From contig JABUBF010000008.1 of the NCBI GenBank assembly GCA_013306035.1, forward strand, positions 44,457-60,901: DNA of 16,445 nt, read 5' to 3'. Positions 1,692-16,344 of this stretch are shown here, one piece after another (positions within the stretch are counted from its first letter, which is position 1; every line of letters starts with the position of its first letter). The notes below the pieces were generated by a model. That model was given only the letters and a program-made list of their open reading frames with translations. It made no database searches and had not been told where the DNA came from. This DNA comes from Nitrososphaerota archaeon (GTDB lineage Archaea; Thermoproteota; Nitrososphaeria; Nitrososphaerales; UBA57). A program made the translations under genes and the position numbers.

Positions 1692-1780
1692 TTTGAAATT
1701 ACCGAAGTTTATCAACAATCCATGTATTGAAAAGGATTAATAATTGAATACAAGGAATTGCAGGTAGAATTCAATAAATG

Positions 1781-2050
1781 TCACATCAAGATATCAGGTT
1801 TAATATTAATAAATAAAACATTATTTCCACGTATAACAACTTTGCCATAATTTGCAGATAATGTTCCATCTGCATATTCTTCTGCGTCGTTAAGAATAAC
1901 ATTCATGTAAGCATCTACATTTGTCATTTTTCCTCGATATTCAATATCATTTTTCAGTCTGATCATAACGTTCTTGTTAATAGACCTTTGTAACTTATTG
2001 AGAGGTTTTATGATTTTCAGATCAAAGTTGTCATTAAAGTTGTTACTCAT
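1781..2050 (-). CDS. Sm-like (LSm / SmAP) RNA-binding protein.
   Basis: 89 aa. Sm1-like block VMIRLKNDIEYRGKMTNVDAYMNVILNDAEE and Sm2-like block GKVVIRGNNVLFI. ATG start, with a T/A-rich box about 27 nt upstream. Confidence 0.85.
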   Translation of the reverse strand: MSNNFNDNFDLKIIKPLNKLQRSINKNVMIRLKNDIEYRGKMTNVDAYMNVILNDAEEYADGTLSANYGKVVIRGNNVLFINIKPDILM

Positions 2051-2070
2051 CTAAGAAAAAAAGGCGTAAA

Positions 2071-2102
2071 CAAAAATAAAAAGCTTGGTATTGTATAAAA
2101 AA
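2071..2102. promoter_or_regulatory. Divergent promoter region with two TATA-like boxes, one for the LSm gene (minus) and one for the RadB-like gene (plus).
   Basis: The minus-strand reading of 2071-2083 is CTTTTTATTTTTG, centred about 27 nt upstream of the LSm ATG (2050). TATAAAAAA at 2094-2102 is centred about 27 nt upstream of the ATG at 2125. This spacing fits archaeal TATA-to-TSS distance for leaderless mRNAs. Confidence 0.4.
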
Positions 2103-2124
2103 GGTATATTTAAGGAAGATTCAG

Positions 2125-2916
2125 ATGAATAGCAATTTTACCAATATAGATGAATTCAGCAGATTTGATAATTTCATAACAGGGACAAATAAGAATGACA
2201 TGGAAAGGATATTTGGCGGATTCGATTTATTAGATGAAGATAGACATAGAAGAATAACAAAGCATGAAACTGGTGTAAGGGAACTTGATTTAGTCACATA
2301 TGGTTTTCCAACTGGAACAATTACAGATTTATTTGGGCCAAATTCGTCAGGGAAATCACAAATTTTATTCCAGATTGCGGTAAATACATCAATTAAGAAA
2401 CAAAAAATTCTTTTCATTGACTCGTCTGGAAACTTCCGTCCTGAGAGAATTGTTCAATTAAGCCATGCAAAGAAACAAGAATCAAAAAATATCTTAGACA
2501 ATATCTATACAAGTAGATGTAATTCTTTAGATAGTCAATTAGAAACAATTTCAAAGATTGAACAATTTATTAAAAATAATAATATCACATGTGTAATGAT
2601 AGATGACATAACAAGAAATTTTACTGAACATCAATTTGAATTAAAGAACGAAATGATGGACATATTAATAGAATATGTAAGAGAATTATCTAATTTAGCA
2701 TGGAATAAGAATATTGCAATAATAACAACAAACACAGTACGGGCAAGAATAGATGATTCAAATATGAAAGAAAGAGAAACATATGATTTCTTAATAAATA
2801 GATTAATACATCTAAAAGTGAGTTTAAAAAGAATGAATAACTTATGGTTAGCAAGAAATAACGATGGAAACCAATGTATTTTTAATATTTCTGAAGACGG
2901 AATAGGTAGAGTGTAA
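2125..2916 (+). CDS. RecA/RadA-superfamily ATPase, RadB-like RadA paralogue with a roughly 45-aa N-terminal extension.
   Basis: 263 aa. ETGVRELDLVTYGFPTGTITDLFGPNSSGKSQILFQIAV matches the RadA/RadB pattern (G-x-x-LD ... G-x-x-T-x-x-x-G-x-x-x-x-GKS/T, Walker A at residues 71-78). A hydrophobic-D Walker B candidate is ITCVMIDDI. There is no N-terminal HhH domain as in bona fide RadA. Confidence 0.75.
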   Translation: MNSNFTNIDEFSRFDNFITGTNKNDMERIFGGFDLLDEDRHRRITKHETGVRELDLVTYGFPTGTITDLFGPNSSGKSQILFQIAVNTSIKKQKILFIDSSGNFRPERIVQLSHAKKQESKNILDNIYTSRCNSLDSQLETISKIEQFIKNNNITCVMIDDITRNFTEHQFELKNEMMDILIEYVRELSNLAWNKNIAIITTNTVRARIDDSNMKERETYDFLINRLIHLKVSLKRMNNLWLARNNDGNQCIFNISEDGIGRV

Positions 2917-3296
2917 TGACAAAAGAAGCGATTAATGAATGTGTAGAAAAAATAATTGCAAAGGATTTTACTAAGGCAAAAGTAATAATAGCTGAACATC
3001 TGAAAAATTCTCCGAATAATAAAATTATTGGATCAGTTTTTGCTCTTGAAGGAATTATAGCAAAATATTCGCCCAAAAATGTGGACATGAATGATTCAAT
3101 AGACGATTTTAAGATGATGAAAAAAAGTATTAATTCTAAGTTATCTTCGGTTTGGATTGATGATTTTGAGAAAGGCTATTTTTCAGTATGGAAAGTATTT
3201 ACAAAAAATGCAATAGAAAAATTAGATAAAGAAGGTATTGTAGATAATCCAGCTGAAAAGGAACAAGCCAATGAAGCTTCCCACACCAGTATATGA
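2916..3296 (+). CDS. Hypothetical small, predicted helical protein, start-stop coupled to the RadB-like gene.
   Basis: 126-aa ORF whose ATG (2916-2918) overlaps the upstream TAA (2914-2916) as TAATG. I recognise no family motif. The last 75 nt overlap the convergent membrane-protein ORF. Confidence 0.5.
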   Translation: MTKEAINECVEKIIAKDFTKAKVIIAEHLKNSPNNKIIGSVFALEGIIAKYSPKNVDMNDSIDDFKMMKKSINSKLSSVWIDDFEKGYFSVWKVFTKNAIEKLDKEGIVDNPAEKEQANEASHTSI

Positions 3297-3539
3297 TAGC
3301 TTAAGACGTTCATCTTCTTTAATCTTTGAATAATACATCTGACGTACAAGTGCCAAAGTAAAAAGATACATTGATATTCCAAATAATATGCCTAAATTAG
3401 CATTGGGATTATTAGATGTGAAACCTAGTAAACCAGCAGAGAAACCAGAAATTATGCCGAAAGCGACTCTTATCCAAAAGATGGTATTAAATATAAATTT
3501 AGAGTCAGACACGGTTAACAATTTAATATAAAAATACAA
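3222..3539 (-). CDS. Small integral membrane protein with about 3 predicted TM helices. Start codon uncertain.
   Basis: 105-aa ORF with hydrophobic stretches IFWIRVAFGIISGFSAGLLGF, LGILFGISMYLFTLALV and VGSFIGLFLFSWIIYNTFF. There is no N-terminal ATG. Candidate starts are TTG (3539 or 3521) or GTG (3512). Confidence 0.5.
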   Translation of the reverse strand: MYFYIKLLTVSDSKFIFNTIFWIRVAFGIISGFSAGLLGFTSNNPNANLGILFGISMYLFTLALVRQMYYSKIKEDERLKLSYTGVGSFIGLFLFSWIIYNTFFI

Positions 3540-3581
3540 GAAGATATAAAACTATATGAATAATGTTATTTGGGATTTAAA

Positions 3582-5477
3582 ATGGAATTATCGTCTATTG
3601 AAATATTCAAGATAATTTCAGCATTGAATAAAGAAATAGAATCAGACAGCATTTATTTGAATAATATCTACCAAGTGATGAATGATTCGTATTTATTCAA
3701 GTTACATCAAGTAGGTAAACCAAAGAAATACGTAATGGTAAATCCAAAAATTGGAATATGGGCTTCAAAATACGACATAGATAAAGATGAATCTATTGGA
3801 TATGTGACCGCATTAAGAAAGAATTTGCTAAGAGCAAAATTAATCAAGTTTGAACAACCTCCAGGAGAAAGAATATGCATCATTCACTTTGAAACTAAAA
3901 AAGGACTGAGAAAGATAATTTGTGAATTTTTTAGAGGAGGAAATATCATAGTTATAGATGAAAATAATAAGATTTTATCGTGTTTAAAGAAATTAAAAGT
4001 GCGGCATAGAGAAATATTTCCTGGCAGCATATATAAATTTCCGCCATTAAAAGCAACCAGCATAGAGAACTTTCAAAAAGATGATTTAAAAAATATCAAT
4101 GAAACAGAATTAGAAATAGCAAAATGGATTGGAAGAAATTATTCAATATCAAAAAAGTATATTGAAGAAATACTTAAAAAAATAGAAATAGAAAAAGAGA
4201 GAAAATGTAATACTTTATCAGACGAAGAAATAGAGAATCTAGAAACAGAGATAATAGGATTAATTAAAATAATGAAATCCGATGATATGAGTGTATGGAT
4301 TGCAAGAGATGGAGAAATAATCGATGATATTTCTTTGATGAATTTGGGTATTAGTAAAGAAAAGACATATCATAAATCAGAATCGCTAATGAGTGAACTA
4401 GATAATTATATTACATTGAATTTGTCAAGAGTTCAAACTACCAACAAACAGAAACCATTAAAAAATAAGATAATCGAGTTAGAGAAATCAATCAAATTGC
4501 AAGAGGAAGCCTATAATAATAATAAGAATAAAGCTATAGAATTAAGAAATATAGCAACAGAATTGAGTAAAGCAAACAGCTATATAGAAATATTAAAAGG
4601 GAAAAACATCGAAATAATAAAATATAGAAATAACGTTATTAAAATCCCATTCATTGATTCGGAAAAAGAGTTAGAAGAGAATATTGCACCTATAAAATTA
4701 TCATCTTTATGTTTTGATTATGCGAAAAAGATGGAAAAGAAAATAAAAGCAATTGAGATTGCGTCAAATAAACTAAAAGGGGATTTAGAAAAGATTAGAA
4801 ACAAGATAAATGAACGTGAAGAGATGAAGTCCACAATAAAAGTAAAAGAAGAGATGTTATGGTTTGAGAAATTTAGATGGTTCATATCGCCAGAGGGAAT
4901 ATTAGTAATAGGTGGAAGAGATGCACAGTCAAATGTGAATATAATAAAGAAATATGCAAAACAAAATGATTTAGTTTTTCATTCAGACATAGTGGGATCG
5001 CCTTTTTTTATAATAAAAGATGGAATAAGTGAAATTTCAATTGCTGAAATTGCAACAGCTACTGCATCATTTAGCAGAGCATGGAAAACACAAACTTCAG
5101 TAAATGTATATTATGTAAAATATGAACAAGTAAAGAAAGGCGCGCCAAGTGGTATGTCCATGTCAAAAGGAAGTTTTATGATTGAAGGTAAAAAGAACAT
5201 ATTGAAAAATGTAAAACTGGAACTTGCGGTAGGAGCAGTAAAATATCAAGACAAATATACAATAATGAGTGGTCCTGTAGAAGCATTAACGAGAGAATCT
5301 TTAGCATGGGTAAGAATACAACCAGGTAAAGGAAAATCTTCAGATATTGCAAAATCGATTAAGAACAAACTTATTTCAAAATTAAATAATGATATATCCG
5401 AAATATACAAAGGAAAATCAATTGATGAATATTTACGAGTGCTACCGCCTGGAGGATCAGAAATACTAGATAAGTAG
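3582..5477 (+). CDS. NFACT-family protein (archaeal homologue of Rqc2/NEMF/RqcH, also called FbpA-like): NFACT-N, a long coiled coil, and NFACT-R (DUF814).
   Basis: About 631 aa from the ATG at 3582 (the track begins at a TTG at 3570). N-terminal block LIKFEQPPGERICIIHF resembles the RqcH/Rqc2 IEQ-x-x-x-DRI-x-x-x-h segment. The middle is Lys/Glu-rich and heptad-like. C-terminal WFISPEGILVIGGRDAQSNVNIIKKYAKQNDLVFHSDIVGSPFFIIKDG is a typical NFACT-R/DUF814 core. Confidence 0.85.
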   Translation: MELSSIEIFKIISALNKEIESDSIYLNNIYQVMNDSYLFKLHQVGKPKKYVMVNPKIGIWASKYDIDKDESIGYVTALRKNLLRAKLIKFEQPPGERICIIHFETKKGLRKIICEFFRGGNIIVIDENNKILSCLKKLKVRHREIFPGSIYKFPPLKATSIENFQKDDLKNINETELEIAKWIGRNYSISKKYIEEILKKIEIEKERKCNTLSDEEIENLETEIIGLIKIMKSDDMSVWIARDGEIIDDISLMNLGISKEKTYHKSESLMSELDNYITLNLSRVQTTNKQKPLKNKIIELEKSIKLQEEAYNNNKNKAIELRNIATELSKANSYIEILKGKNIEIIKYRNNVIKIPFIDSEKELEENIAPIKLSSLCFDYAKKMEKKIKAIEIASNKLKGDLEKIRNKINEREEMKSTIKVKEEMLWFEKFRWFISPEGILVIGGRDAQSNVNIIKKYAKQNDLVFHSDIVGSPFFIIKDGISEISIAEIATATASFSRAWKTQTSVNVYYVKYEQVKKGAPSGMSMSKGSFMIEGKKNILKNVKLELAVGAVKYQDKYTIMSGPVEALTRESLAWVRIQPGKGKSSDIAKSIKNKLISKLNNDISEIYKGKSIDEYLRVLPPGGSEILDK

Positions 5478-5489
5478 GAATGAATTGAA

Positions 5490-6755
5490 ATGAATCTAAA
5501 TATAATAAATGGAAGAGTGTGGATAAACAGTAATCTAGAAGATATTATAATATCAATTAAAGATGGAAAAATATCAAAACTGGCAAATCAGGACAACATT
5601 CCTGAAGCGGATGTTTCGATAGATGTAGAGAACAACATTGTATTTCCTGGATGCGTAGATGTGCATTCGCATTTAAGAGATTCAGAATTTTCATATAAAG
5701 AAGATTTTATTTCAGGAACGCAGGCAGCAGTGGCAGGAGGATTTACAACTGTATTAGATATGCCGAATACAGATCCACCCATAATTAACGTAAAAGAATT
5801 AAAAAAACGACAAAATAATGCGAAAAATAGAATTTTTTGTAATGTTGGATTCTATAGTTCGCCTATCAAATCTGAGGATGTAAATCAATTAAGATTATCA
5901 AATGCAATTGCATTCAAGATATATTTACATAAACCATTCGAGGAACAGGATTTATCAGATGTAAATTTGATTAGAATTATGAATAGAATAAGTGAATGTG
6001 ATTCAATATTAGCAGTGCATGCAGAAGATCGCCAACTATTTGATCAAAATAACAACCATACAACCGAATCAGAAGTTCATGCCATAAATAGAATTATAAA
6101 ACTAGCAAAACAGACAGATTGTAAGATACATTTTGTACATGTTTCAACAAAAGAAGGTATTGAAGCGATTAAGAATAACAAGTCGATTGTAGACATATCA
6201 TGTGAAGCAACGCCACATCATATGATTTTGAATACAGAAAAAATAAATAGTGAAAAACATTACTGTGAGCCTCCTTTAAGGGATAAAGAAAATCAGGAAG
6301 CAATATTTAACAGCGTAGTGGATGGGGAAATTGATATTATAGGAACTGATCATGCTCCACATTCATTAAGAGATAAAGATGAAGGAAAACCAGGTTTTCC
6401 AGGTCTAGAAATAACTCTGCCCTTGATGATTGATTTGTATATGAAAAATAAGATTACGCTACAGAGAATATATGAAATATTGGTAGATAATCCAATCAAA
6501 AGATTTGGATTAAGAAATATTGGTCAGATTAAAGAGGGGTATAATGCAGATTTGATAGTGATTAATGAGAATAAGATGAATACAATAAATGTTAATAATT
6601 TTTTGTCTAAAGCAAAGAATTCACCATTCGATGGCAATCAGATTTTAGGAGTAGTTACAAAGACAATAATTAATGGTCAAGTAGTATTTGATGGAAAAAA
6701 GATAATAGCTAGTCCTGGAACTGGCAGAGTGTTAGAAAAAGAAGTCGACTTTTGA
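5490..6755 (+). CDS. pyrC: Dihydroorotase (cyclic amidohydrolase superfamily).
   Basis: 421 aa. Metal-binding VDVHSHLRD (HxH), AFKIYL (candidate carboxylated Lys), AVHAED, HFVHVST and GTDHAPH motifs. Other cyclic amidohydrolases (allantoinase, dihydropyrimidinase) cannot be fully excluded by eye. Confidence 0.8.
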   Translation: MNLNIINGRVWINSNLEDIIISIKDGKISKLANQDNIPEADVSIDVENNIVFPGCVDVHSHLRDSEFSYKEDFISGTQAAVAGGFTTVLDMPNTDPPIINVKELKKRQNNAKNRIFCNVGFYSSPIKSEDVNQLRLSNAIAFKIYLHKPFEEQDLSDVNLIRIMNRISECDSILAVHAEDRQLFDQNNNHTTESEVHAINRIIKLAKQTDCKIHFVHVSTKEGIEAIKNNKSIVDISCEATPHHMILNTEKINSEKHYCEPPLRDKENQEAIFNSVVDGEIDIIGTDHAPHSLRDKDEGKPGFPGLEITLPLMIDLYMKNKITLQRIYEILVDNPIKRFGLRNIGQIKEGYNADLIVINENKMNTINVNNFLSKAKNSPFDGNQILGVVTKTIINGQVVFDGKKIIASPGTGRVLEKEVDF

Positions 6756-6773
6756 TAATCTTGGGATGATAAC

Positions 6774-7922
6774 GTGTTGAAAAAGAAAGTATATTTTCCT
6801 ATATATGGATCAGGAGTAGGACATGCAAATAGAACATCATTAATTGCAAGTTCATTGAATAAAGACTTTACATATACATTCAGTTCATTCAAAGATGGTT
6901 ATGAATTTTTAGTGGCAAATAAATTTCAATGTAAAAAAATTCATCCATTAGATATATCTTGGAAAGACAATGGAACAGTATCAACGACAAGAACAATAAT
7001 TAGACTTCCAATATTAGCAGGAACTTTTTTATATCATCTAGAAGAAGAATTGCGATTCTTGAAAAAATATAAACCAGATATAGTATTTAGTGATTCAAGA
7101 CTATCTCCGGTTTTGTGTGCGAATAAGCTGGGAATACCATCAATTGTAATTCTTAATCAGATCAAATTATTAGTAGAAATCAGGAATACACGTAAAAGAA
7201 GATTAGAGAAAATCAATGGACAGTTATTAGCCCATTTCTGGAATTATGCAGACGAGATATTTATTCCAGATTTACCGCCTCCTTATACAATATGTAAGGA
7301 GAATATAGAAGGAATAGACTCAATAAAAACTAAATTAAGATATATTGGATTTCTAGCCAAAGAATTAGATGAAAAAAGAAAGAAATCAATAATTAATGAG
7401 TTGAAGATAGATGGAAAAAAGAGTACAATATACGTACAAGTAAGTGGACCAAAACAATCAAGATTAAGTGCATATAATAGAATTATTGAACAGATTAAAT
7501 CAATAAAAGACGAGTATAATATTATAATTTCCAAAGGCGATCCAAATGGAGAACCTATACCAAAAAAGAAAGAGTATTGGACTGAATTTGAATGGTGTCC
7601 TTGGAGAGAGATGTTCGATATATCTGACTGTGTAATAATACGAGGAGGTCATTCGAGTATAGGGAATGCAGTATCTTTAGGAAAACCATCAATAATAATA
7701 CCAATAAAAGGACAAAGCGAACAGATACAAAATGCAAGGAGAATTGATGAACTAAATTTAGGAATACATATGGAAGAAGACGATTATTCATTAGTTGAGA
7801 ATGTTAAATCAGTATTAAACGATGGTAAATTTTTAAAGGCTACAAATAATTTTAGAAAACTAACTTCTAGATACAATGGAATAGAGATTTGTAAAGAGAA
7901 GATTCAAGAATATATAAAATAA
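6774..7922 (+). CDS. GT-B fold glycosyltransferase (GT1/GT28-like, MJ1255-type).
   Basis: 382 aa. N-terminal YGSGVGHANR glycine loop and C-terminal IIRGGHSSIGNAVSLGKPSIIIPIKGQSEQIQNA resemble the MurG/UDP-glycosyltransferase donor-binding region. GTG (6774) or TTG (6777) start, preceded by GGGATGAT. Confidence 0.7.
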   Translation: MLKKKVYFPIYGSGVGHANRTSLIASSLNKDFTYTFSSFKDGYEFLVANKFQCKKIHPLDISWKDNGTVSTTRTIIRLPILAGTFLYHLEEELRFLKKYKPDIVFSDSRLSPVLCANKLGIPSIVILNQIKLLVEIRNTRKRRLEKINGQLLAHFWNYADEIFIPDLPPPYTICKENIEGIDSIKTKLRYIGFLAKELDEKRKKSIINELKIDGKKSTIYVQVSGPKQSRLSAYNRIIEQIKSIKDEYNIIISKGDPNGEPIPKKKEYWTEFEWCPWREMFDISDCVIIRGGHSSIGNAVSLGKPSIIIPIKGQSEQIQNARRIDELNLGIHMEEDDYSLVENVKSVLNDGKFLKATNNFRKLTSRYNGIEICKEKIQEYIK

Positions 7923-8798
7923 TTATTTTCTATTAGATAATTTCTTTTCTAATTTAATCAAATCGTCGTGATTAACGAGTTGATTGAATTTATCAAAGGT
8001 AATTAATTGATCTTCAATACCAAGAGAGGTTTGGTGTTTCTTTAGATAAGACAAAGAATCAAATACAGCCTTAGTAGATGCGTAAAGAGAGGTCAAGGGA
8101 AATAAGATAATTTTAAAACCGATTGTTTTTGCTTTTTTCATAGAGATTAAAGGAGTGCGTCCTCCTTCTAATTGGTTTAATAATAATGGAAGTTTCACTT
8201 GTTTTGCAATAATTTCTAGTTCGTCGACTTTGTTAGGAGCTTCTATAAATAAAATATCTGCGCCAGCTTTACTATATCGTTTAACTCTATCAATAGCCAT
8301 ATCTATTCCTTCGACTGCTAAACTATCAGTACGTCCTACAATCACCAAATCTGATTTTTCTTCTTTTCGACTTTGTGCAGCGGCAATTATTTTTGATTCC
8401 ATCTCATCGATGGGAATGACTAATTTTCCTTTCATATGTCCGCATTTTTTTGGCCATACTTGGTCTTCAAGAATAAGTCCTGCTGCGCCTGAACGAATAT
8501 AATCTTTGACAGTCCTCATAGTATTCAGAGAATTACCGTAGCCAGTATCTGCATCAGCAATTACAGGAATATCAATAGAATTACAAATATTAGAAACTCT
8601 TTCTTTCATTTCCGAAAAACTTACAAGACCAATGTCAGGAACGCCAAGTAAAGTTGCGGCAGTTCCATATCCCGTATGAAAAACTGCATCGAATCCTACT
8701 TGTTGTGCGATTTTTGCACTTAATGCGTCATATATTCCAGGTACAAAGATAGTTTTGTTTGTTTCGAGAAGTTTACGCAGAGACTTGGATTTATCCAT
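7923..8798 (-). CDS. Isocitrate lyase / PEP mutase superfamily enzyme (methylisocitrate-lyase or carboxy-PEP-mutase-like).
   Basis: 291 aa. DADTGYG metal-binding block and EDQVWPKKCGHMKGK, which matches the K-[KR]-C-G-H lyase-family signature with the catalytic Cys. Confidence 0.8.
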   Translation of the reverse strand: MDKSKSLRKLLETNKTIFVPGIYDALSAKIAQQVGFDAVFHTGYGTAATLLGVPDIGLVSFSEMKERVSNICNSIDIPVIADADTGYGNSLNTMRTVKDYIRSGAAGLILEDQVWPKKCGHMKGKLVIPIDEMESKIIAAAQSRKEEKSDLVIVGRTDSLAVEGIDMAIDRVKRYSKAGADILFIEAPNKVDELEIIAKQVKLPLLLNQLEGGRTPLISMKKAKTIGFKIILFPLTSLYASTKAVFDSLSYLKKHQTSLGIEDQLITFDKFNQLVNHDDLIKLEKKLSNRK

Positions 8799-8820
8799 AA
8801 TTTACAATATTATTGGTCAC

Positions 8821-8860
8821 TATTAATTATAACACAGTAATAGACTAATATTTTATAATA
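8821..8860. promoter_or_regulatory. Divergent promoter region between the ICL-family gene (minus) and the rhomboid gene (plus).
   Basis: TATTAATTAT (8821-8830) is centred about 27 nt upstream of the minus-strand ATG (8798). TTTTATAATA (8851-8860) is centred about 27 nt upstream of the ATG at 8883. Confidence 0.4.
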
Positions 8861-8882
8861 CAAGAATTATAAGTAGATAGAT

Positions 8883-9506
8883 ATGGAATTCAATGAGAAT
8901 AGTTATAGACAGCCAAGGATTACACAGGCAAAATGGACTCTGAGGTTTATTGGAATATCAGTTATATTTTTTATATTTCAAAATATTCTTGGCCCAGAGA
9001 TTTGGCAATATTTTGCATTTTTCCCTGCACTGGCAATAAAATGGCCATGGACTTTAATAACTTCAGTATTTCTTCATGCAGATTTTAATCATTTATTGTT
9101 CAATATGTTTGCATTATTTTTCTTTGGGTCATATTTAGAAAGATTGTTGGGAAGTAACAGATTTTTGATAATATTCATATCTGCTGGAATAGTTGGGAAT
9201 ATAGGATATTTTGTGACTGCATCAAACAACATGATACCAGCAATAGGCGCGTCTGGTGCAGCTTATGGGCTAATGGGTACATTGGTAGTTCTAGCTCCAT
9301 TTATGTCGGTATATATTTGGGGACTATTACCTGTGCCAATGATAATATTAACTGCAGTATATGCGTTCATTGACGTTATTGGATTGTCTGCCCCTTCAGG
9401 AATAGCACATGGCGCACACTTAGCAGGATTAATTGTAGGAATAGTATTTGGATTGTATCTAAGACCGTATTTTGGCTACAAAAGAAAAAGAGATATAGAT
9501 CTATAA
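8883..9506 (+). CDS. Rhomboid-family intramembrane serine protease.
   Basis: 207 aa and multi-TM. Contains HADFNHLLFNM, the catalytic-Ser block GASGAAYGLMG (GxSG) and the catalytic-His block AHGAHLAGL. Confidence 0.85.
   Translation: MEFNENSYRQPRITQAKWTLRFIGISVIFFIFQNILGPEIWQYFAFFPALAIKWPWTLITSVFLHADFNHLLFNMFALFFFGSYLERLLGSNRFLIIFISAGIVGNIGYFVTASNNMIPAIGASGAAYGLMGTLVVLAPFMSVYIWGLLPVPMIILTAVYAFIDVIGLSAPSGIAHGAHLAGLIVGIVFGLYLRPYFGYKRKRDIDL
9480..9489 (-). terminator. Candidate oligo-T termination tract for the GT2 gene, embedded in the rhomboid C-terminal codons.
   Basis: Plus strand AAAAGAAAAA reads TTTTTCTTTT on the minus strand, 18-27 nt downstream of the GT2 stop codon. Archaeal terminators are typically oligo-T runs. 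Confidence 0.3.
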
Positions 9507-10652
9507 TTATTTTTTTGTATAGGCACGTCCACGCCAAACAAATGAAGAATTTGAATATATTTTAAAGACTGAAAGAATCATACAGTAAAAGAATATCAGA
9601 TTAGTAATTGGTTGAAAGAGTATATACAACTTAGAATGATTAATATCAACAAATTCGATAAGATACGATATTCCCATAAAAGTTATAGTGAGAAGAATTA
9701 AGACAGAATATAAAATTTCTAATGAAGTTACAAAAAAGATTAGAAAATAAGGAAGTACAAGACCTATAAACGCGAGAAAGATAGATATTAATCCAAGAAA
9801 CAAATGAGATTCTATAAATGATGCAGATGTTGCACGTTGTACAGCATCAATATTATTGGTAAAGCCAGTATTAGAATAGGTTGTAACAAAATCACCAGAA
9901 CGTATCAGTTTTAGATTATAACCAGATTTTTTAAGACGTTCGCCAAGAGATTTATCTTCAACAAAGGATGATTTTATACTTTCATGACCGCCAACATCAT
10001 CATATATCTGTTTTTTAATTAAAATAAAACCACCAACAAGATAAGCAATAGATGTACTTTTTGAGTTTAATAATAAAGGAGAATACAATATATTAATCAT
10101 AGAAATCAAGATAGGCAAAATAAGTTTCCCCCAAAAGTCAGAACATGTTAATTGAGGAAACATAGTAAATACGTCAAGATTACTATTTTGCATATAGGAT
10201 AAAGAAGATTTGATTGAATGAGTTTGATGTTCCGTATCAGCGTCGATAAATAATAATAATGAACCATTGGATATTTTAGATCCTTCATGACATGCACGGT
10301 TTTTTCCAACCCAAGTTTTATCATCATTATTTAATTTTAAAAGTGAGAATCTATCATTATTCTGACAAAACTGGTTGGCAATATGGTATGTATCGTCAGT
10401 AGAATTATCGTCTACAACAATTACCTCAAAATTACTATAAGTTTGTTTCTGTATGGATTCTAAACAACGAAGGATATTTAATTTTTCATTTCTAGCGGGA
10501 ATGATAATTGAGATTAACGGATTATGCAAAGGGTTTTCGTCTAAACTTAATTTATCTATATTGAAAAAACTGAATATTCGGAAAAGAAGAATAATAAACC
10601 AAGATAATGCCAGTATCGGAATAATAATTTCCAATAATGTATAAAATATCAC
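9507..10652 (-). CDS. Family-2 glycosyltransferase with one N-terminal TM helix and several C-terminal TM helices.
   Basis: 381 aa. ISIIIPARNEKLNILRCLESIQKQTYSNFEVIVVDDNSTDDT is the canonical GT2 (GT-A) N-terminal block, followed by the FIDADTE (DxD) motif and a hydrophobic C-terminal third. There is no ATG at the N-terminus; the start is apparently GTG (rc of 10650-10652). Confidence 0.8.
   Translation of the reverse strand: MIFYTLLEIIIPILALSWFIILLFRIFSFFNIDKLSLDENPLHNPLISIIIPARNEKLNILRCLESIQKQTYSNFEVIVVDDNSTDDTYHIANQFCQNNDRFSLLKLNNDDKTWVGKNRACHEGSKISNGSLLLFIDADTEHQTHSIKSSLSYMQNSNLDVFTMFPQLTCSDFWGKLILPILISMINILYSPLLLNSKSTSIAYLVGGFILIKKQIYDDVGGHESIKSSFVEDKSLGERLKKSGYNLKLIRSGDFVTTYSNTGFTNNIDAVQRATSASFIESHLFLGLISIFLAFIGLVLPYFLIFFVTSLEILYSVLILLTITFMGISYLIEFVDINHSKLYILFQPITNLIFFYCMILSVFKIYSNSSFVWRGRAYTKK
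9510..9516 (+). terminator. Candidate oligo-T (T7) termination tract for the rhomboid gene, embedded in the GT2 C-terminal Lys-Lys codons.
   Basis: TTTTTTT lies 4 nt after the rhomboid TAA. On the other strand the same bases encode the last Lys-Lys of the GT2 protein. Confidence 0.4.
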
Positions 10653-10669
10653 AGTATTATCTGGGTTTT

Positions 10670-10700
10670 AGGTTATTTATCTAACAAGGTTTATTTATTA
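10670..10700. promoter_or_regulatory. Divergent promoter region with two directly repeated AGGTT(T)ATTTAT boxes.
   Basis: AGGTTATTTAT (10670-10680) lies about 24 nt upstream of the GT2 start (10652, minus). AGGTTTATTTAT (10687-10698) lies about 25 nt upstream of the PAS ATG (10720). Confidence 0.35.
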
Positions 10701-10719
10701 CCATAGTTGAGTGGTAATT

Positions 10720-11055
10720 ATGAGTGAAGATAAATTTCCAGTATCAGGAATAGCATGTGATTTACAAGGAAATATAACCGAATTCGGCAAAGGTGCTGAA
10801 GAATTATTCGGATATACGAGAGACGAATTAATAGGCAAAGGAAATGTAGGAATGTTTCATATCGAAGCAAACTTACAAACTTTAGTCCCGTCATTACTCC
10901 AAACCGCTTCAGAGAAAGGTGAATGGGAAGACATAGTAGAATTAGTACGAAAAGACGGATCACATTTCAAAGGAAAATTAAATGTTAAACCATTGATGCA
11001 AGATGGTCAACAAATTGGCTTCATGGGAAAAACAGAGTTTATTGAGAATATCTAG
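10720..11055 (+). CDS. Stand-alone PAS-domain sensor protein with no output domain.
   Basis: 111 aa from the ATG at 10720 (the track starts at a GTG at 10711). GIACDLQGNITEFGKGAEELFGYTRDELIGK ... VRKDGSHFKGKLNVKPL matches the PAS-fold pattern. Confidence 0.7.
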   Translation: MSEDKFPVSGIACDLQGNITEFGKGAEELFGYTRDELIGKGNVGMFHIEANLQTLVPSLLQTASEKGEWEDIVELVRKDGSHFKGKLNVKPLMQDGQQIGFMGKTEFIENI

Positions 11056-12080: not shown

Positions 12081-12362
12081 ATGAGACAGTTTAAAATTAT
12101 AGCAGAACAATCTAAAAAAGTATTTGAAGAAGAATTAAATAAATTATCAGAAGATGGATGGGAGATAATTCATTATGGTAGTTCAGTAAGTATTGGTTCA
12201 ACACGTTCAAATACAGTGGCATTATTCAGTGCTGTATTAGAAAAAGAAAAAGCTGTTTCAATAAAAAAGAAAACAAAAACAGATAAGAAAAAATCATCTA
12301 CAGTAGCAAGAAAAACTACTGAAAATTCAATTTCAAGCACAAATGATTTTCAATTAAATTAG
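12081..12362 (+). CDS. Small DUF4177-like protein with a Lys-rich C-terminal tail.
   Basis: 93 aa. N-terminal MRQFKIIAEQ...ELNKLSEDGWEIIHYG resembles the DUF4177 pattern (x-YK-h-h ... LN-x-x-x-x-x-GWEL-h). The tail KKKTKTDKKKSS is low complexity. Confidence 0.55.
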   Translation: MRQFKIIAEQSKKVFEEELNKLSEDGWEIIHYGSSVSIGSTRSNTVALFSAVLEKEKAVSIKKKTKTDKKKSSTVARKTTENSISSTNDFQLN

Positions 12363-13162
12363 CTTTCAACAGGAAGATTGTCGCGAGTACTCCAATCAGC
12401 AAATGAGCGATCGTAAATTTTAACATTATTGTATTCACAAAGTTGTAATGCAACAAATGTATGAGATGCTCTTTCTCCTACTTGACAATAACAAATTATT
12501 TCTTTATCTTTTGTAATACCAAATTTTTCAAATAGATTATTTAGATTTTCAATGGTTTTAAAGATGTAACCATCATCTCCAACTGCCAATTCCCAGGGAA
12601 AGTTTTTTGAATTTGGGATTCTACCGGATTTTGGTCCAGCGGCAATAATTCCATTGAACTCATCAGGACTACGAGTATCTAGTAAGATTGAACCAGAGTC
12701 ATCAAGTTTGGATAATACATATTCATGATCAACTTTGAAATCAAGTTTAGATTGAGTTATAACAAAATCGGTATTATTAATTGCTTCAACTTTATCAGTA
12801 ACAGGATAACCTATGGACATCCATTTAGAGAAACTGAGATCAAGATATTTTACTTTAAGACCATAATATGTTAATGACCAAAATAGACGTGAAGCAGTTG
12901 TGCCACCACGATCGCCGCAAATTACAAGAACAGAATCATTTTTAACTCCAAGAATACTAAGCAACTCTTCGATTTTTTCCTTAGGAGCGATGTCAAAATA
13001 CGAAGAATCTGCATTAAAGTCTAAGATTTTATCGTATGGAACGAGCTTGGAATTAGGAATATGTGCTGAACTATATTCTCTAGGAGATCGAATATCAAGA
13101 ACAACAACATTAGAATCAAGAAGATTGTCTTTTAGCCATTCGGCGTTTAACAAAATAGACAT
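12359..13162 (-). CDS. Tandem-rhodanese sulfurtransferase (thiosulfate / 3-mercaptopyruvate sulfurtransferase type).
   Basis: 267 aa with two rhodanese repeats. The N-terminal domain appears inactive (VLDIRSPREYSSAHIPNS ... GDRGGTTASRLFW). The C-terminal domain appears catalytic, with the active-site loop CYCQVGERASH (C-x4-R-[ST]). The ATG overlaps the stop of the upstream TusA gene (TAATG). Confidence 0.85.
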   Translation of the reverse strand: MSILLNAEWLKDNLLDSNVVVLDIRSPREYSSAHIPNSKLVPYDKILDFNADSSYFDIAPKEKIEELLSILGVKNDSVLVICGDRGGTTASRLFWSLTYYGLKVKYLDLSFSKWMSIGYPVTDKVEAINNTDFVITQSKLDFKVDHEYVLSKLDDSGSILLDTRSPDEFNGIIAAGPKSGRIPNSKNFPWELAVGDDGYIFKTIENLNNLFEKFGITKDKEIICYCQVGERASHTFVALQLCEYNNVKIYDRSFADWSTRDNLPVES

Positions 13163-13389
13163 TATTTTTTCCTCAAAATAAATTTCAGATGATTATTTTC
13201 TTCTTTAATTTCAATTATTTCATGTCCGACACGATTAGCCCACGCAGGTATATCTTCTTTAGAAGCTGGATCAGTAGCAGATATTTCAAGAACCTGTCCA
13301 CTTTCCATCTTGGAAATAAATTGTTTAGTCTTAAGAACGGGAATTGGGCATACAAGTCCTTTTACATCAAGTGATTGATCTATTTTCAT
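13162..13389 (-). CDS. tusA: TusA/SirA-family sulfur-carrier protein (paralogue 1).
   Basis: 75 aa from the ATG at 13387-13389 (the track starts at a TTG at 13401). LDVKGLVCPIPVLKTKQ contains the CPxP persulfide-carrying Cys motif, and SATDPASKEDIPAWANRVGHEI is a typical TusA core. Confidence 0.8.
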   Translation of the reverse strand: MKIDQSLDVKGLVCPIPVLKTKQFISKMESGQVLEISATDPASKEDIPAWANRVGHEIIEIKEENNHLKFILRKK

Positions 13390-13393
13390 AAGA

Positions 13394-13399
13394 ATCACC
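13394..13399 (-). promoter_or_regulatory. Shine-Dalgarno-like GGTGAT upstream of TusA paralogue 1.
   Basis: The minus strand reads TTGGTGATTCTTATG, so GGTGAT sits 4 nt before the ATG. This supports the ATG at 13389 as the start and internal translation initiation within a polycistronic mRNA. Confidence 0.4.
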
Positions 13400-13409
13400 A
13401 AGAAATAAT

Positions 13410-13649
13410 TTAGTTATTATTGTTTTTTATGGAAATCTTGAAAACACCTTCGTCGGTTTCTTCGGAACTGAGAACCTCGTGTCCGTCTTTTTTAACTGCT
13501 GAAGGAATATTTATTGTAGAAGGTAAGTGATCAACAATAACTTCTAAGACTTCTCCGTCTTCTAATGTTTTTAGTTCTTTAAGAGTGAAGATAACTGGCC
13601 ATGGGCATACTTGTCCAATGAGATCGAGTTTCTTACTTTGTTGTTGCAT
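13410..13649 (-). CDS. TusA/SirA-family sulfur-carrier protein (paralogue 2, divergent).
   Basis: 79 aa. LDLIGQVCPWPVIFTLKE keeps the CPxP Cys motif. The downstream core is divergent (VDHLPSTINIP rather than the TDP-x-S-x-x-DI of paralogue 1). The ATG lies 3 nt after the stop of the SelD-like gene and is preceded by GGAGTGGA. Confidence 0.75.
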   Translation of the reverse strand: MQQQSKKLDLIGQVCPWPVIFTLKELKTLEDGEVLEVIVDHLPSTINIPSAVKKDGHEVLSSEETDEGVFKISIKNNNN

Positions 13650-13652
13650 TAA

Positions 13653-15083
13653 TCATTCCACTCCTATATTTAATTGATTTAACAAGATATCTGATGTAAT
13701 CATATCATTTACATCTTTCGAGATGTTGACTGTTCCATTTCCTTTACCTAGAACAGTGCCAATAATATGTGGGTCATAACCTGCAGATTTTAAATCAGAA
13801 CTAATATTTGCAATTATATTAGGAGAAGCAATTACTGCAACTGCGCCATTAGTACCTGCAGTAGCATTATCCATAAGGAAATTCTCAGTAGCATATTTAA
13901 CAAATTCAGGATAACGGAGGGGAAGATTATCTAGAGATATATCCACTTGTGCATTATCTGCATGTTCTTTAAAGATCATTATACCTGGTCCAGACAAGTC
14001 GCCCGTTGCAAGAACATGTTCATTAATATCAAATGAATTGCCAAATTCGGGCAAATACTTGTTAATTATTTCTGCAACCTTCAAATTTGGTTCATTCATA
14101 GTACTAATAACAGAATTTTTAGCATTTTCAACATCTTTGAGTGTATAACCAGTTTTTTCCAAGTCTTGTAAAAATGTTTCGTCTGCAACGCAGGATAAGA
14201 AGACATTAATTGGAGCTAGATCGCCAAATGGACGAGTAACCAAAATCTGCATACCAGTATTTAGAAGGTTTAATTTAGTAGGAGGTTCTTTCCTAAGAGT
14301 TCCAAACATAGTAGCGCCAATCAGTAATTTTCCACGCTGAGGTGATTCAGATGTTAGAAGTTCAATATTATATTTGTTTGCAAAAGTTTCCATATTTTTA
14401 GAAATATTATTTTTAATTTCTTCATTAGGTGCATCAACAACAGGTAAAACTTTTAGTTCTTCGAAACAACCAAGAGAAATTAAATCATTTAGAGAATTGG
14501 AGATGGCGACATTTGTTTGCTGTTCAGATGAAGGATCTGCAGTAGGATCAATAATTTGAATTGTATCATTATTTGATAAACACCAACCGTCAGATCTACC
14601 TTCTTCATAGGATATGAAATCAAACAATGCAAATTCTGCTTCTGGAAAACCGGTAATGATCGAATGGCCTTTACCAACAGTAAAATGAACGTCAGATTTA
14701 GAAATAGATGAATAAAGTGTATTCAATAATGCTTGAAACTTTTCTTGCTTCTCAGCATTTTTCTGAAAGACTTGCAATAAAGAGATTGCACGTTTTGGAT
14801 TAATCTTTTTTAAATCGTCAAGATCAATTTCAGGATTAGAAGGATTATAGATTCTACGAGTTATTACTGGACCATTTTCAGTTAATGGAAATATATCGGC
14901 ATCAACCCTCTCCCCTAAAGAGATTCCCATCTGTTTCAGACTAGGTTTTAAGTTATGCAAACTAGGATATACTACTGTATTTAAATCAACTTTCACGGCA
15001 CAGCCTGCTACCCACCTTAACGGGTCCATGCCCATTTCTCTATATTTGGAGACGTTGTCCCAGAATTCTTGTTTTGTGCTCAT
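13653..15083 (-). CDS. Selenophosphate-synthetase-like (SelD-like) PurM/AIR-synthase-superfamily ATP-dependent enzyme, unusually long at 476 aa.
   Basis: Hand alignment to E. coli SelD, recalled from memory. VAGCAVKV (res 25-32) aligns with GAGCGCKI (the Cys17/Lys20 loop). [43 protein letters not shown] aligns with [56 protein letters not shown] aligns with [17 protein letters not shown] with MTDVTGFG, and GAVAVIASP...HIIGTV with GGLLLAV...AIGELV. About 100 extra residues sit between the N-terminal loop and the core. Confidence 0.7.
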   Translation of the reverse strand: [476 protein letters not shown]

Positions 15084-15111
15084 AAGTGAAACAATTAATC
15101 AAATGTCGAAA

Positions 15112-15146
15112 AGTATATAAATATAACGGCATTATAAAATAGGGAG
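15112..15146. promoter_or_regulatory. Shared divergent control region between the SelD-like operon (minus) and the Tat beta-propeller gene (plus).
   Basis: The 70-nt spacer contains a near-palindromic TATATAAATATA (15114-15125), a second box TTATAAAAT (15132-15140) and an SD-like GGGAG (15142-15146) 7 nt before the ATG at 15154. Confidence 0.4.
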
Positions 15147-15153
15147 AATAGAA

Positions 15154-16344
15154 ATGTCAAACATAAACGTAAATCGAAGAGATTTTATCAAATATATCGG
15201 CGGAGCAGCTGTCGGTTTAGGGATTGGAGGAGCAGGTTATCTGTCTGCCAACTCTCAAGTTGGTACAGTAACAAGTGAACTTGAACAGGTAAAAGAAGAA
15301 CTAAAAGGAAGAGGACATTTAGGATATGTCTTTGGTGCGGAAGGATCAATTGCGACAATTGACCTATCTCGTGGAAAAGTCTTAGCATCATCAGGACCTA
15401 CATGGATTGCGGAAGCAGGCAGTATAGACTGGTGTAACCATTATCCGGATGCAAATGGAAATGTATGGGGGCTAGTAAGAAAATCAGGGCAAATAGGATC
15501 GACAATTGGAGTAAATCCAGCAACTAATGAACTAGTTCATGATGTTCCATTAGATGGAAGATGGAGAATAAGATTAGGAGAAACAGACACAGAAGGAAGA
15601 TACGGATATATGTTGAATGGATATATTGCAGATAAATATGATTCAGAAAAATTCAATGCTTCTAGAGACGAATTTGAAATTCCATATAAAGACATTGATC
15701 CAGGAGTAATTCACAAAGTAGATCTTCTTAGTGGAAAAGTAGTTGATAAATTAGAAGTTCCAAAGTTCTGTTGTGATGTGGCGATTGCACCTGATGGTAG
15801 ATTGTGGCTTGCAAATCAATTAGAGAGTTTGTTAACTGTAGTCGATACAAATAGCTTTACAATTGAAGAGCATTTAGCTACAGAATACTTTGACTATGGT
15901 GCAAGTATGGTAACTATTTCTCCTAACAATGATGTTGCTTTCATTGAAGTAAATTCAGCAGGAAATTGGTCAAATGCAGCAGGATTTAAGAATTTGGATC
16001 CAATTGAAATGGTATGGGACATTCAAGCAAAAGAAATGGTTAAAGAGTTTCCATTAGAATCAGGTCCACGTACAAGTGAATTCACACCGGATGGAAAATA
16101 CTGCATTGTAAGAACTAGACCAGCGTCAATAGTATATGATGTAGATAGCTTGACTGAAGTTACAAAGATAGAAATCGAGAATACAGGACATCCTGCATTT
16201 AGTCCAGATAGCAGTCTTGCATATATACCAAATCCAGGAGACAGTTCAGTTGATGTGTTCGAGGTAGGCTCGTTTAAGAAAGTAGATAGTCTGAAACTAC
16301 CTTATTCGCCATCAAAAATTATTCCAATAAATACAAACAATTAA
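15154..16344 (+). CDS. Tat-signal secreted beta-propeller repeat protein (YVTN-like).
   Basis: 396 aa. N-terminal NRRDFIKYIGGAAVGLGIGGAG is a twin-arginine signal (RR-x-F-h-K plus a hydrophobic region). A strand motif h-h-x-h-h-D-x-x-x-x-K/E-h-h recurs: SIATIDLSRGKV, IHKVDLLSGKVV, LLTVVDTNSFTI, MVWDIQAKEMV, SIVYDVDSLTEV, SVDVFEVGSFKKV. PDG turns also recur (IAPDGRLW, FTPDGKY, FSPDSS). Confidence 0.7.
   Translation: MSNINVNRRDFIKYIGGAAVGLGIGGAGYLSANSQVGTVTSELEQVKEELKGRGHLGYVFGAEGSIATIDLSRGKVLASSGPTWIAEAGSIDWCNHYPDANGNVWGLVRKSGQIGSTIGVNPATNELVHDVPLDGRWRIRLGETDTEGRYGYMLNGYIADKYDSEKFNASRDEFEIPYKDIDPGVIHKVDLLSGKVVDKLEVPKFCCDVAIAPDGRLWLANQLESLLTVVDTNSFTIEEHLATEYFDYGASMVTISPNNDVAFIEVNSAGNWSNAAGFKNLDPIEMVWDIQAKEMVKEFPLESGPRTSEFTPDGKYCIVRTRPASIVYDVDSLTEVTKIEIENTGHPAFSPDSSLAYIPNPGDSSVDVFEVGSFKKVDSLKLPYSPSKIIPINTNN

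Follow-up and report, generated by a model that had tools for sequence, protein, structure and literature searches.

The DNA considered here is a stretch of 16,445 nucleotides from a Nitrososphaerota archaeon (assembly GCA_013306035.1, contig JABUBF010000008.1, positions 44,457 to 60,901), referred to below as the window. Its subject is a gene on the reverse strand whose product is related to selenophosphate synthetase (SelD) and is about 130 amino acids longer than the E. coli enzyme, with roughly 95-105 of these additional residues in the N-terminal half. The SelD-like gene stands first in a compact operon that continues with two TusA paralogues and ends with a rhodanese. The features of the locus are as follows.

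13653..15083, reverse strand: SelD-like open reading frame (ORF), 476 amino acids plus stop, a member of NF038049 (SelD_rel_HyperS)
13410..13649, reverse strand: TusA paralogue 1, 79 amino acids, Cys-Pro-Trp-Pro (CPWP) motif, Pfam TusA at E 6e-21
13162..13401, reverse strand: TusA paralogue 2, Cys-Pro-Ile-Pro (CPIP) motif, Pfam TusA at E 1e-24
12359..13162, reverse strand: two-domain rhodanese, 267 amino acids, active-site CQVGERA, Pfam Rhodanese at E 5e-32 in two stretches
15084..15153: divergent intergenic region of 70 base pairs with the A+T-rich TATA-like element TTATATTTATATA

An initial sequence-only reading had assigned 476 residues to the ORF at 13653-15083, and this assignment is borne out. 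A gap of 3 nucleotides separates the SelD-like stop from the first TusA gene, a gap of 8 nucleotides follows between the two TusA genes, and the start of the rhodanese gene overlaps the stop of the second by 1 nucleotide; the likely start of this second TusA gene is the ATG at 13389. The TATA-like element, read from the sequence as a candidate promoter, lies approximately 30-45 nucleotides 5' of the SelD-like ATG. The window has a G+C content of about 31%, the SelD-like protein is 98% identical to a protein of a marine Nitrososphaerales metagenome-assembled genome (MAG), and synteny with the window is common to seven marine Nitrosopumilales-type MAGs; the host is a mesophilic marine Nitrosopumilales-type ammonia-oxidising archaeon. 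NCBI already holds an identical protein, named 'selenide, water dikinase [Nitrososphaerales archaeon]'.

Membership of the SelD-like family

By its sequence, the protein is a typical, full-length member of the already described SelD-like family. The NCBIfam model NF038049, 'SelD-related putative sulfur metabolism protein', matches it at E 9.9e-167 and 555.1 bits (cut-off 250) and does so nearly end to end, with protein residues 6-472 on model positions 2-464 of 465. The SelD model PRK14105 returns 38.8 bits against a cut-off of 291 and covers only residues 174-459. A single-sequence phmmer search of the PDB gave no match at all, to SelD or otherwise, a PDB search with a 40-sequence profile gave marginal matches only (including SelD 3u0o), and Pfam had no family for the whole SelD-like protein at E<=0.01. 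The family is small, with 209 representatives at E<=1e-3 among 1.84 billion, and has diverged to less than 40% identity; the 116 homologues assembled here (449-581 amino acids) have the same layout as the window protein.

The family was described purely in silico by Li et al. (2014, BMC Genomics 15:908, PMC4210487), who aligned its Cys with the selenocysteine/Cys of SelD and found the Cys-x-x-Lys motif, four Asp and the Asn to be kept. Its neighbours were given as SirA/TusA, DsrE-like and rhodanese genes, with an acylphosphatase fusion in the Thermoproteales, and the synthesis of thiophosphate was hypothesised as its function. In the same study the family forms a separate clade, found in organisms without genes for selenocysteine, selenouridine or a selenium cofactor, confined to two crenarchaeal orders and absent from Bacteria; an insertion, an extension, a duplication and the Thaumarchaeota all go unmentioned (PMC4210487). 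The window protein agrees with the NF038049 family in length class, in the invariant Cys-x-x-Lys, Asp and Asn residues, in its TusA (SirA-like) and rhodanese neighbours and in the proposed thiophosphate role. Its identification is thus mostly a rediscovery of a family for which a curated model and a paper exist. Unlike the SelD-like proteins originally described, which belong to hyperthermophilic sulfur reducers, it comes from a mesophilic marine ammonia oxidiser, and its operon combines two TusA genes with a two-domain rhodanese and lacks acylphosphatase and DsrE. A marine thaumarchaeal host with a G+C content of about 31% falls outside the original circumscription to hyperthermophilic sulfur-metabolising Crenarchaeota; this mismatch is a matter of circumscription, not of homology, and NCBI already names thaumarchaeal members. 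Two points are new. On the best explanation, the extra segment is a second, degenerate AIRS N-domain holding a share of the catalytic set, and the family reaches beyond its first circumscription to ammonia oxidisers of the sea, to several lineages of Euryarchaeota and to some bacterial MAGs.

Catalytic-type residues and their conservation

Residue correspondences with SelD were drawn from an alignment of the 116 homologues, 59 further divergent cluster representatives and a 15-sequence SelD alignment. The last of these combined E. coli SelD with diverse plasmid-borne selD genes, as a homologue search with E. coli SelD gave only near-identical enterobacterial sequences. The correspondences are listed below.

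Cys28, codon 15000-15002, reverse strand: E. coli C17, by profile-profile alignment
Lys31, codon 14991-14993, reverse strand: E. coli K20, by profile-profile alignment
D61, codon 14901-14903, reverse strand: E. coli D51, by collinear alignment
G137-K-G-H140-S141, 14661-14675, reverse strand: E. coli GGHS 138-141
D173, codon 14565-14567, reverse strand: E. coli D68, by conservation, motif and strand position
N196, codon 14496-14498, reverse strand: E. coli N87
D200, codon 14484-14486, reverse strand: E. coli D91
D362, codon 13998-14000, reverse strand: E. coli D227

The hhalign comparison places residues 191-455 on E. coli SelD 82-345 with a probability of 99.5 and E 3e-23, and this strong alignment makes N196, D200 and D362 the counterparts of N87, D91 and D227, as the sequence-only reading had proposed. 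The same reading had equated Cys28 and Lys31 with SelD Cys17 and Lys20 by hand, and profile-profile alignment agrees. Here the loop A-G-C28-A-V-K31 aligns with E. coli G16-C17-G-C-K20, in a weak match (E 3e-4) that survives a shuffle control. Residues G27, C28, K31, D61, N196, D200 and D362 are invariant in the 116 homologues, and D173 is nearly so.

Two of the five ligands originally proposed have to be reassigned in the wider alignment, the other three being those within 191-455. D165, first taken for the equivalent of D51, occupies a variable position in a hairpin turn (D, N, E, Q, I, T or a gap) and therefore cannot be that ligand. Collinear alignment instead pairs D61 with D51, and further pairs G57 with E. 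coli G45 and R59 with R49, such that R59-x-D61-A lies on R49-D-D51-A. Residue E150, a cross-strand neighbour of the NND strand, was tried as a D51 equivalent and rejected, its position being variable in the wider family. D179, first matched to D68, is invariant in the close family and replaced by Pro in a divergent subgroup. D173 belongs to the N-N-D-T motif with which strand 167-175 ends, and no apparently intact member is without it; its place matches that of D68, which in SelD ('T-T-D') ends strand beta-2. Conservation, motif and strand position thus make D173 the better equivalent of D68. Across residues 145-190 hhalign, whether global or greedy, has zero confidence and gives mutually inconsistent placements of D173 and D179, and the coordinates of the PRK14105 match are too imprecise to choose between the two.

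These reassignments move the extra length. From Lys31 to D61 there are 30 residues, as compared with 31 in E. coli and with the approximately 134 first counted to D165, and from the first to the second Asp there are 112 as compared with 17. As the former spacing is close to that of SelD, the additional 95-105 or so residues do not lie between the loop Lys and the first Asp, and fall between the first and second Asp instead. The earlier description of an insert between loop and core was thus right as to the N-terminal half and wrong as to the position within it. At the other end of the protein, where 35 additional residues had been estimated, only about 20 extend beyond SelD.

Among 65 full-length cluster representatives, 59 keep C28, K31, D/E61, R76, K138, H140, D/E155, N171, D173, N/H196, D200, H356, D362, T408 and N412, and the window protein keeps every residue of this set. 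In the six exceptions (P0252, P0261, P0263, P0267, P0268 and P0272) K31 is replaced by Glu and most ligand positions (KGH, NND, N196, D200 or D362) are lost, and, to judge by their sequences, these family members are probably true cases of decayed paralogues. P0268 lacks Cys28 too, and one decayed cluster is labelled Thermoproteota. These few distant relatives are what could recommend a view of the window protein itself as a decayed, non-catalytic paralogue that serves as a scaffold or regulator. That view deserves next to no credence, given that no catalytic-type residue is missing from the window protein or from its 116 close relatives and that the model of the window protein is confident. 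Residue conservation and the confidently predicted fold instead support an apparently functional enzyme, in line with the sequence-only reading and with what had already been published for the family (PMC4210487). The residue map (C28, K31, D61, K138/H140, D155, D173, N196, D200 and D362), together with the domain architecture described below, can guide the choice of mutants.

Architecture of the N-terminal half

The most satisfactory explanation of the extra segment is a second, degenerate AIRS N-domain, which would give the protein an N-N'-C organisation with its motifs split across the two halves. The domain layout is given by residue and window position.

Residues 1-33, 14985..15083, reverse strand: N-terminal helix (3-16) and mobile loop G27-C28-x-x-K31
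Residues 34-162, 14598..14984, reverse strand: first AIRS-type N-like domain (N1), from hhalign, AlphaFold2 and shuffles
Residues 163-265, 14289..14597, reverse strand: second, partial N-like domain (N2), from hhalign, the 3u0o profile match and conservation
Residues 266-455, 13719..14288, reverse strand: AIRS_C-type C-domain, with H356, D362, G365-P-G367 and T408-x-G-T-N412-G
Residues 456-476, 13656..13718, reverse strand: C-terminal tail of about 20 amino acids, S455 corresponding to E. coli 345 of 347

The tail is the position at which an acylphosphatase domain is fused in the Thermoproteales (seen in P0099 and L018). In addition to the strong alignment of residues 191-455, hhalign finds an alternative, non-overlapping match in which residues 19-161 are collinear with E. 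coli SelD 8-161, spanning the loop and the whole AIRS N-domain (E 3.3e-4). SelD 82-161 is consequently matched twice, by residues 87-161 and by residues 191-266. With a smaller profile the alignment of 19-161 splits into two collinear pieces. When the columns of the SelD N-domain were shuffled 1000 times, no shuffle reached the summed score of the collinear pair (47.1 observed; null maximum 37.3), and 8/1000 reached that of one collinear piece. N1 keeps R59-x-D61, R76 and GKGHS and is without equivalents of D68, N87 and D91; the D68 position is occupied by Y79, and alignments disagree on the residue matching N87. N2 keeps N171-N172-D173, N196 and D200, is without the first strand, and has LTSESPQ in place of GGHS. 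The N-N'-C layout is read as a partial internal duplication of the N-domain accompanied by complementary loss of motifs.

The predicted structure has the same organisation. AlphaFold2 modelled the full-length protein, from the 116-sequence alignment, with a predicted local distance difference test score (pLDDT) of 92.6 and a predicted template-modelling score (pTM) of 0.91. Confidence is lowest in the Cys-x-x-Lys loop (pLDDT 59), which is almost without regular secondary structure. Among PDB structures, SelD/SEPHS resemble the full-length model most closely: in a Foldseek search, human SEPHS1 and SelD of E. coli, Leishmania and Aquifex head the list (E 1e-15 to 1e-13), followed by HypE and ThiL, and the best match, 3fd5_B (E 1e-15), extends over 316 columns of 476. 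The top 50 PDB matches are all SelD, HypE, ThiL or PurM-type (E 1e-15 to 1e-9), one of them, 2yxz/tt0281, being described by locus name only.

Within this model residues 54-158 form 6-7 strands and 3 helices, not the helical insert first envisaged, and their order, strand-strand-helix-strand-helix-strand-strand, is that of an AIRS N-domain. In SEPHS this domain is a six-stranded sheet with two helices and one short helix (PMC7595633). The abundance of Lys and Gln noted earlier is present, as a trait of the low-GC lineage to which the window belongs; where these residues stand, Arg is the family consensus. Residues 1-162 modelled alone reach a pLDDT of 92.0 and a pTM of 0.77, and among 350,542 PDB chains their top 18 matches all belong to the PurM superfamily (HypE, AIR synthetase/PurM, ThiL and SelD), with E values from 1.8e-4 and TM-scores of 0.33-0.45 (mostly at least 0.40) over 110-165 columns. 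Unrelated folds such as FtsZ are clearly worse matches. Residues 63-66, just after D61, form a strand in the full-length model, which includes residues 163-476, and not in that of 1-162, an indication that the pairing partner of this strand lies in the second half.

The sequence-only reading had taken the segment of roughly 100 residues for a helical insertion and a plausible docking surface for TusA; on that picture it would be a non-catalytic addition between the mobile loop and a canonical SelD core. The 130 or so additional residues and the constancy of TusA as a neighbour would suit such a role. The segment is, however, alpha/beta in structure, contains the invariant R59, D61, R76 and GKGHSI, is collinear with the SelD N-domain and has the same predicted fold, while the supposed core is without GGHS and the spacing from K31 to D61 is that of SelD. 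A docking insertion is accordingly very improbable. The segment looks like a piece of the catalytic core and not like an accessory surface, and it may contact TusA as well; the N-N'-C architecture warns against truncating the 'insert'.

In SelD, ATP is bound in a pocket formed where the two chains of the dimer meet (PMC7595633). By analogy, one complete SelD-type ATP/Mg site is probably assembled here from both halves within one chain. SelD/SEPHS (EC 2.7.9.3; 3u0o, 2yye, 3fd5, 5l16) and the window protein have in common the PurM-superfamily fold, the mobile Cys-x-x-Lys loop, the residues equivalent to D51, D68, N87, D91 and D227, and a TusA/YedF-type neighbour. Whereas SelD consists of one AIRS N-domain and one AIRS_C domain (about 340 amino acids), the window protein has 476 amino acids and two N-like domains. 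Moreover, SelD is a homodimer in which the N-domains form an 8-stranded barrel, whereas a SelD-like chain may provide the second N-domain itself. A precedent is PurL, the large FGAM synthetase, whose AIRS-type domains are internally duplicated in an A1-B1-A2-B2 pseudo-dimer; one chain there mimics a homodimer, and only one site has remained catalytic. Unlike PurL, the SelD-like protein duplicates only the N-type domain, and that partially, and has no second C-domain.

Gene neighbourhood, distribution and proposed function

A scan of 185,579 GTDB species genomes gave 116 confirmed matches, and gene neighbourhoods were compiled from 80 loci, one per GTDB species, in which ORFs were scanned with hidden Markov models built from the neighbours seen in individual loci. 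TusA is the most constant neighbour, lying within 450 base pairs in 63/80 species and in 14/15 of the Thaumarchaeota. A rhodanese is found within 4 kilobases (kb) in 27/80 (Thaumarchaeota 10/15), and an acylphosphatase is adjacent or fused in 37/80, a figure made up largely of Crenarchaeota (32/40; Thaumarchaeota 1/15). Individual loci also have DsrE, ThiF with a cysteine desulfurase, or sHdr/LbpA/lipoate-ligase genes, and in one relative a YeeE/YedE-type transporter gene immediately precedes TusA. Outside the two crenarchaeal orders of the 2014 study, SelD-like genes of full length and 38-55% identity (loci L036, L081, L085, L097, L101 and L102) were found in MAGs with the labels Bipolaricaulota/Acetothermia, Fraserbacteria and Acidobacteriota (bacterial assignments by MAG label only) and in Methanobacteriota, 'Halobacteria', Hydrothermarchaeales, Baldrarchaeota and Methanomethylicia.

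It is fairly probable that the protein is an N-N'-C SelD-like enzyme with a composite site, responsible for the ATP-dependent activation of sulfur delivered by a relay. The rhodanese would mobilise sulfane sulfur, which would pass as a persulfide via the two TusA proteins to Cys28, where ATP-dependent activation would yield thiophosphate or a related sulfur-phosphorus species. Analogy and gene context are the basis from which we infer the composite site, the use of sulfur over selenium, the direction of the relay and the product. A more specific version can be put forward only tentatively: a single-chain 'pseudo-dimer', produced by partial duplication of the AIRS N-domain with its motifs partitioned, would convert TusA persulfide to thiophosphate in the abundant marine ammonia oxidisers, in thermophiles and in some bacteria. 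If thiophosphate is made, this would be a route of sulfur activation parallel to selenophosphate synthesis, through a metabolite not yet known in cells. Thiophosphate would then donate sulfur in nature, a role in which it has never been shown to act in any organism, and the presence of the family in marine Nitrosopumilales, several euryarchaeal lineages and bacterial MAGs would extend the route beyond hot-spring Crenarchaeota.

The same neighbours raise the question of selenium. A genuine selenophosphate synthetase of unusual architecture, supplied with selenium by TusA and the rhodanese as part of an unrecognised selenium trait, would retain SelD's Cys-x-x-Lys loop and ligand set and have SelD/SEPHS as its best structural matches, as is the case. 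TusA/YedF and YedE are found beside canonical selD genes too, and one SelD-like gene lies behind a YedE/YeeE-type transporter and TusA. Against this, the protein scores only 38.8 bits where the SelD model demands 291, and the family forms a separate clade in organisms without selenium-use genes (PMC4210487). Family scans found no selenium-trait gene (SelA/SepSecS with SelB, MnmH/YbbB, YqeB/YqeC) in the 16.4-kb window, and the neighbours elsewhere are sHdr, DsrE, sulfite reductase and cysteine desulfurase. A selenium function is thus quite improbable, and the protein, which falls far below SelD model cut-offs, by analogy probably acts on sulfur. The arrangement resembles YedE-YedF-SelD and TsuA/TsuB (YeeE/YeeD), in which the gene of an ATP-dependent activating enzyme has that of a TusA-fold protein beside it, in some cases together with a YedE/YeeE-type transporter gene, and differs from them in that the relay of the window consists of a rhodanese and two TusA proteins and is without a transporter.

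The acylphosphatase bears on a further explanation, namely that the chemistry is that of other PurM-superfamily enzymes acting on an oxygen substrate. An acyl- or carbamoyl-phosphate intermediate, as in HypE/HypF- or ThiL-like enzymes, would have its phosphate displaced by TusA sulfur, the product being a thiocarboxylate or the like. An acylphosphatase is fused or adjacent in 37/80 loci, and such a domain is also part of HypF, with which the PurM-superfamily enzyme HypE works; HypE and ThiL are the next-best structural matches. The pairing of a PurM-superfamily ATP-dependent enzyme with an acylphosphatase-fold domain is common to HypE-HypF and many SelD-like loci. Consistent with such chemistry, ThiF and a cysteine desulfurase lie beside one relative, and a divergent subgroup is found among phosphomutase, cytidylyltransferase and phosphatase genes. 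However, the Cys-x-x-Lys loop, invariant here, is specific to SelD within the superfamily (PMC4210487). Thaumarchaeal operons, that of the window included, almost never have an acylphosphatase, and the operon holds no candidate acceptor. This explanation is therefore unlikely, though less so than the selenium one. The HypE-HypF pair itself differs from the locus in that HypE is without the Cys-x-x-Lys loop and uses a C-terminal Cys; the window has neither hydrogenase genes nor an acylphosphatase.

Several points nonetheless weigh against the N-N'-C, sulfur-activating enzyme preferred here. The sequence signal between N1 and SelD is weak (E 3e-4, probability 38%), ten N1 segments have no Pfam match at E<=10, a direct profile comparison of N1 with N2 is in register and not significant (E 0.2), and the Foldseek TM-scores for N1 are modest. 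A common site of D61 and GKGHS with D173, N196, D200 and D362 is presumed. The acidic residue D/E155, which every apparently intact member has, could instead be the true first ligand. The acylphosphatase partner common in Crenarchaeota is absent from the window (and found in 1/15 thaumarchaeal loci), such that the pathway may differ between lineages. Finally, the literature search turned up no biochemical or genetic study of any SelD-like member, and a 2026 review still gives its role as 'speculated'.

Several loci elsewhere have neighbours of other kinds. In a groundwater Thaumarchaeota MAG (L013, 7936-9858) a NIR_SIR-type (sulfite/nitrite) reductase of 640 amino acids lies just 3' of the SelD-like and TusA genes and may point to a connection with the assimilatory formation of sulfide in Thaumarchaeota. 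In Sulfolobus sp. E5-1-F (L015, 7600-11186) the SelD-like gene is directly followed on the same strand by genes for a CutABC/xanthine-dehydrogenase-type molybdenum hydroxylase, comprising the flavin adenine dinucleotide, 2Fe-2S and molybdenum-cofactor subunits. This adjacency recalls the SelD-dependent selenium-molybdenum hydroxylases and raises the idea, by analogy, that activated sulfur might serve for the Mo=S ligand. The divergent subgroup, which also has two N-domains (P0292; L023, 3406-7252), keeps C28, K31, D61, KGH, D173, D200 and D362 and has N-V-D-V-P and H196. The P0292 gene lies between those for a phosphomutase-type metalloenzyme, a cytidylyltransferase and a histidine phosphatase, with an acyl-coenzyme A dehydrogenase upstream. 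A canonical Rhodococcus plasmid selD (L006) is also flanked by an acyl-coenzyme A dehydrogenase and a cytidylyltransferase, and together these neighbours suggest a different, non-TusA pathway. As to distribution, aSelBL, a SelB-like elongation-factor paralogue, is found in Thaumarchaeota, Sulfolobales and some Thermoproteales, all without selenocysteine (PMC3037878), and this disjunct pattern overlaps that of the SelD-like family.

At 12081-12362 on the forward strand, convergent with the rhodanese gene, a 93-amino-acid ORF with a Lys/Ser/Thr-rich tail has 64-89% identity to ORFs at the same position in seven marine relatives only, and no family match. It was considered as a hidden acylphosphatase and rejected, having no motif and no Pfam match and being limited to the marine clade. 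Six marine relatives (L026-L031) have a third TusA-family gene (E 1e-9 to 1e-14), encoded on the opposite strand from the SelD-like gene, some 3.5 kb upstream of it and beyond a beta-propeller gene, at a position whose counterpart is outside the window. Positions 597-11055 hold ordinary archaeal housekeeping genes, including those for S-adenosylmethionine synthetase, an LSM protein, a RadA/KaiC-like ATPase, an NFACT (NEMF-like) protein and an amidohydrolase, as well as glycosyltransferases, a phosphoenolpyruvate mutase/isocitrate-lyase-family protein, a rhomboid protease, a PAS-domain protein and a UbiA prenyltransferase. The beta-propeller gene itself, at 15154-16344 on the forward strand and divergent from the SelD-like gene, encodes 396 amino acids with a twin-arginine signal and is syntenic in 7/7 marine relatives. 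In two bacterial MAGs (L085, 6348-6938; L102, 5673-6359) the SelD-like gene is immediately followed by a weak homologue (24-31% identity, E ~1e-6), and a functional link between the beta-propeller protein and the SelD-like gene is possible.

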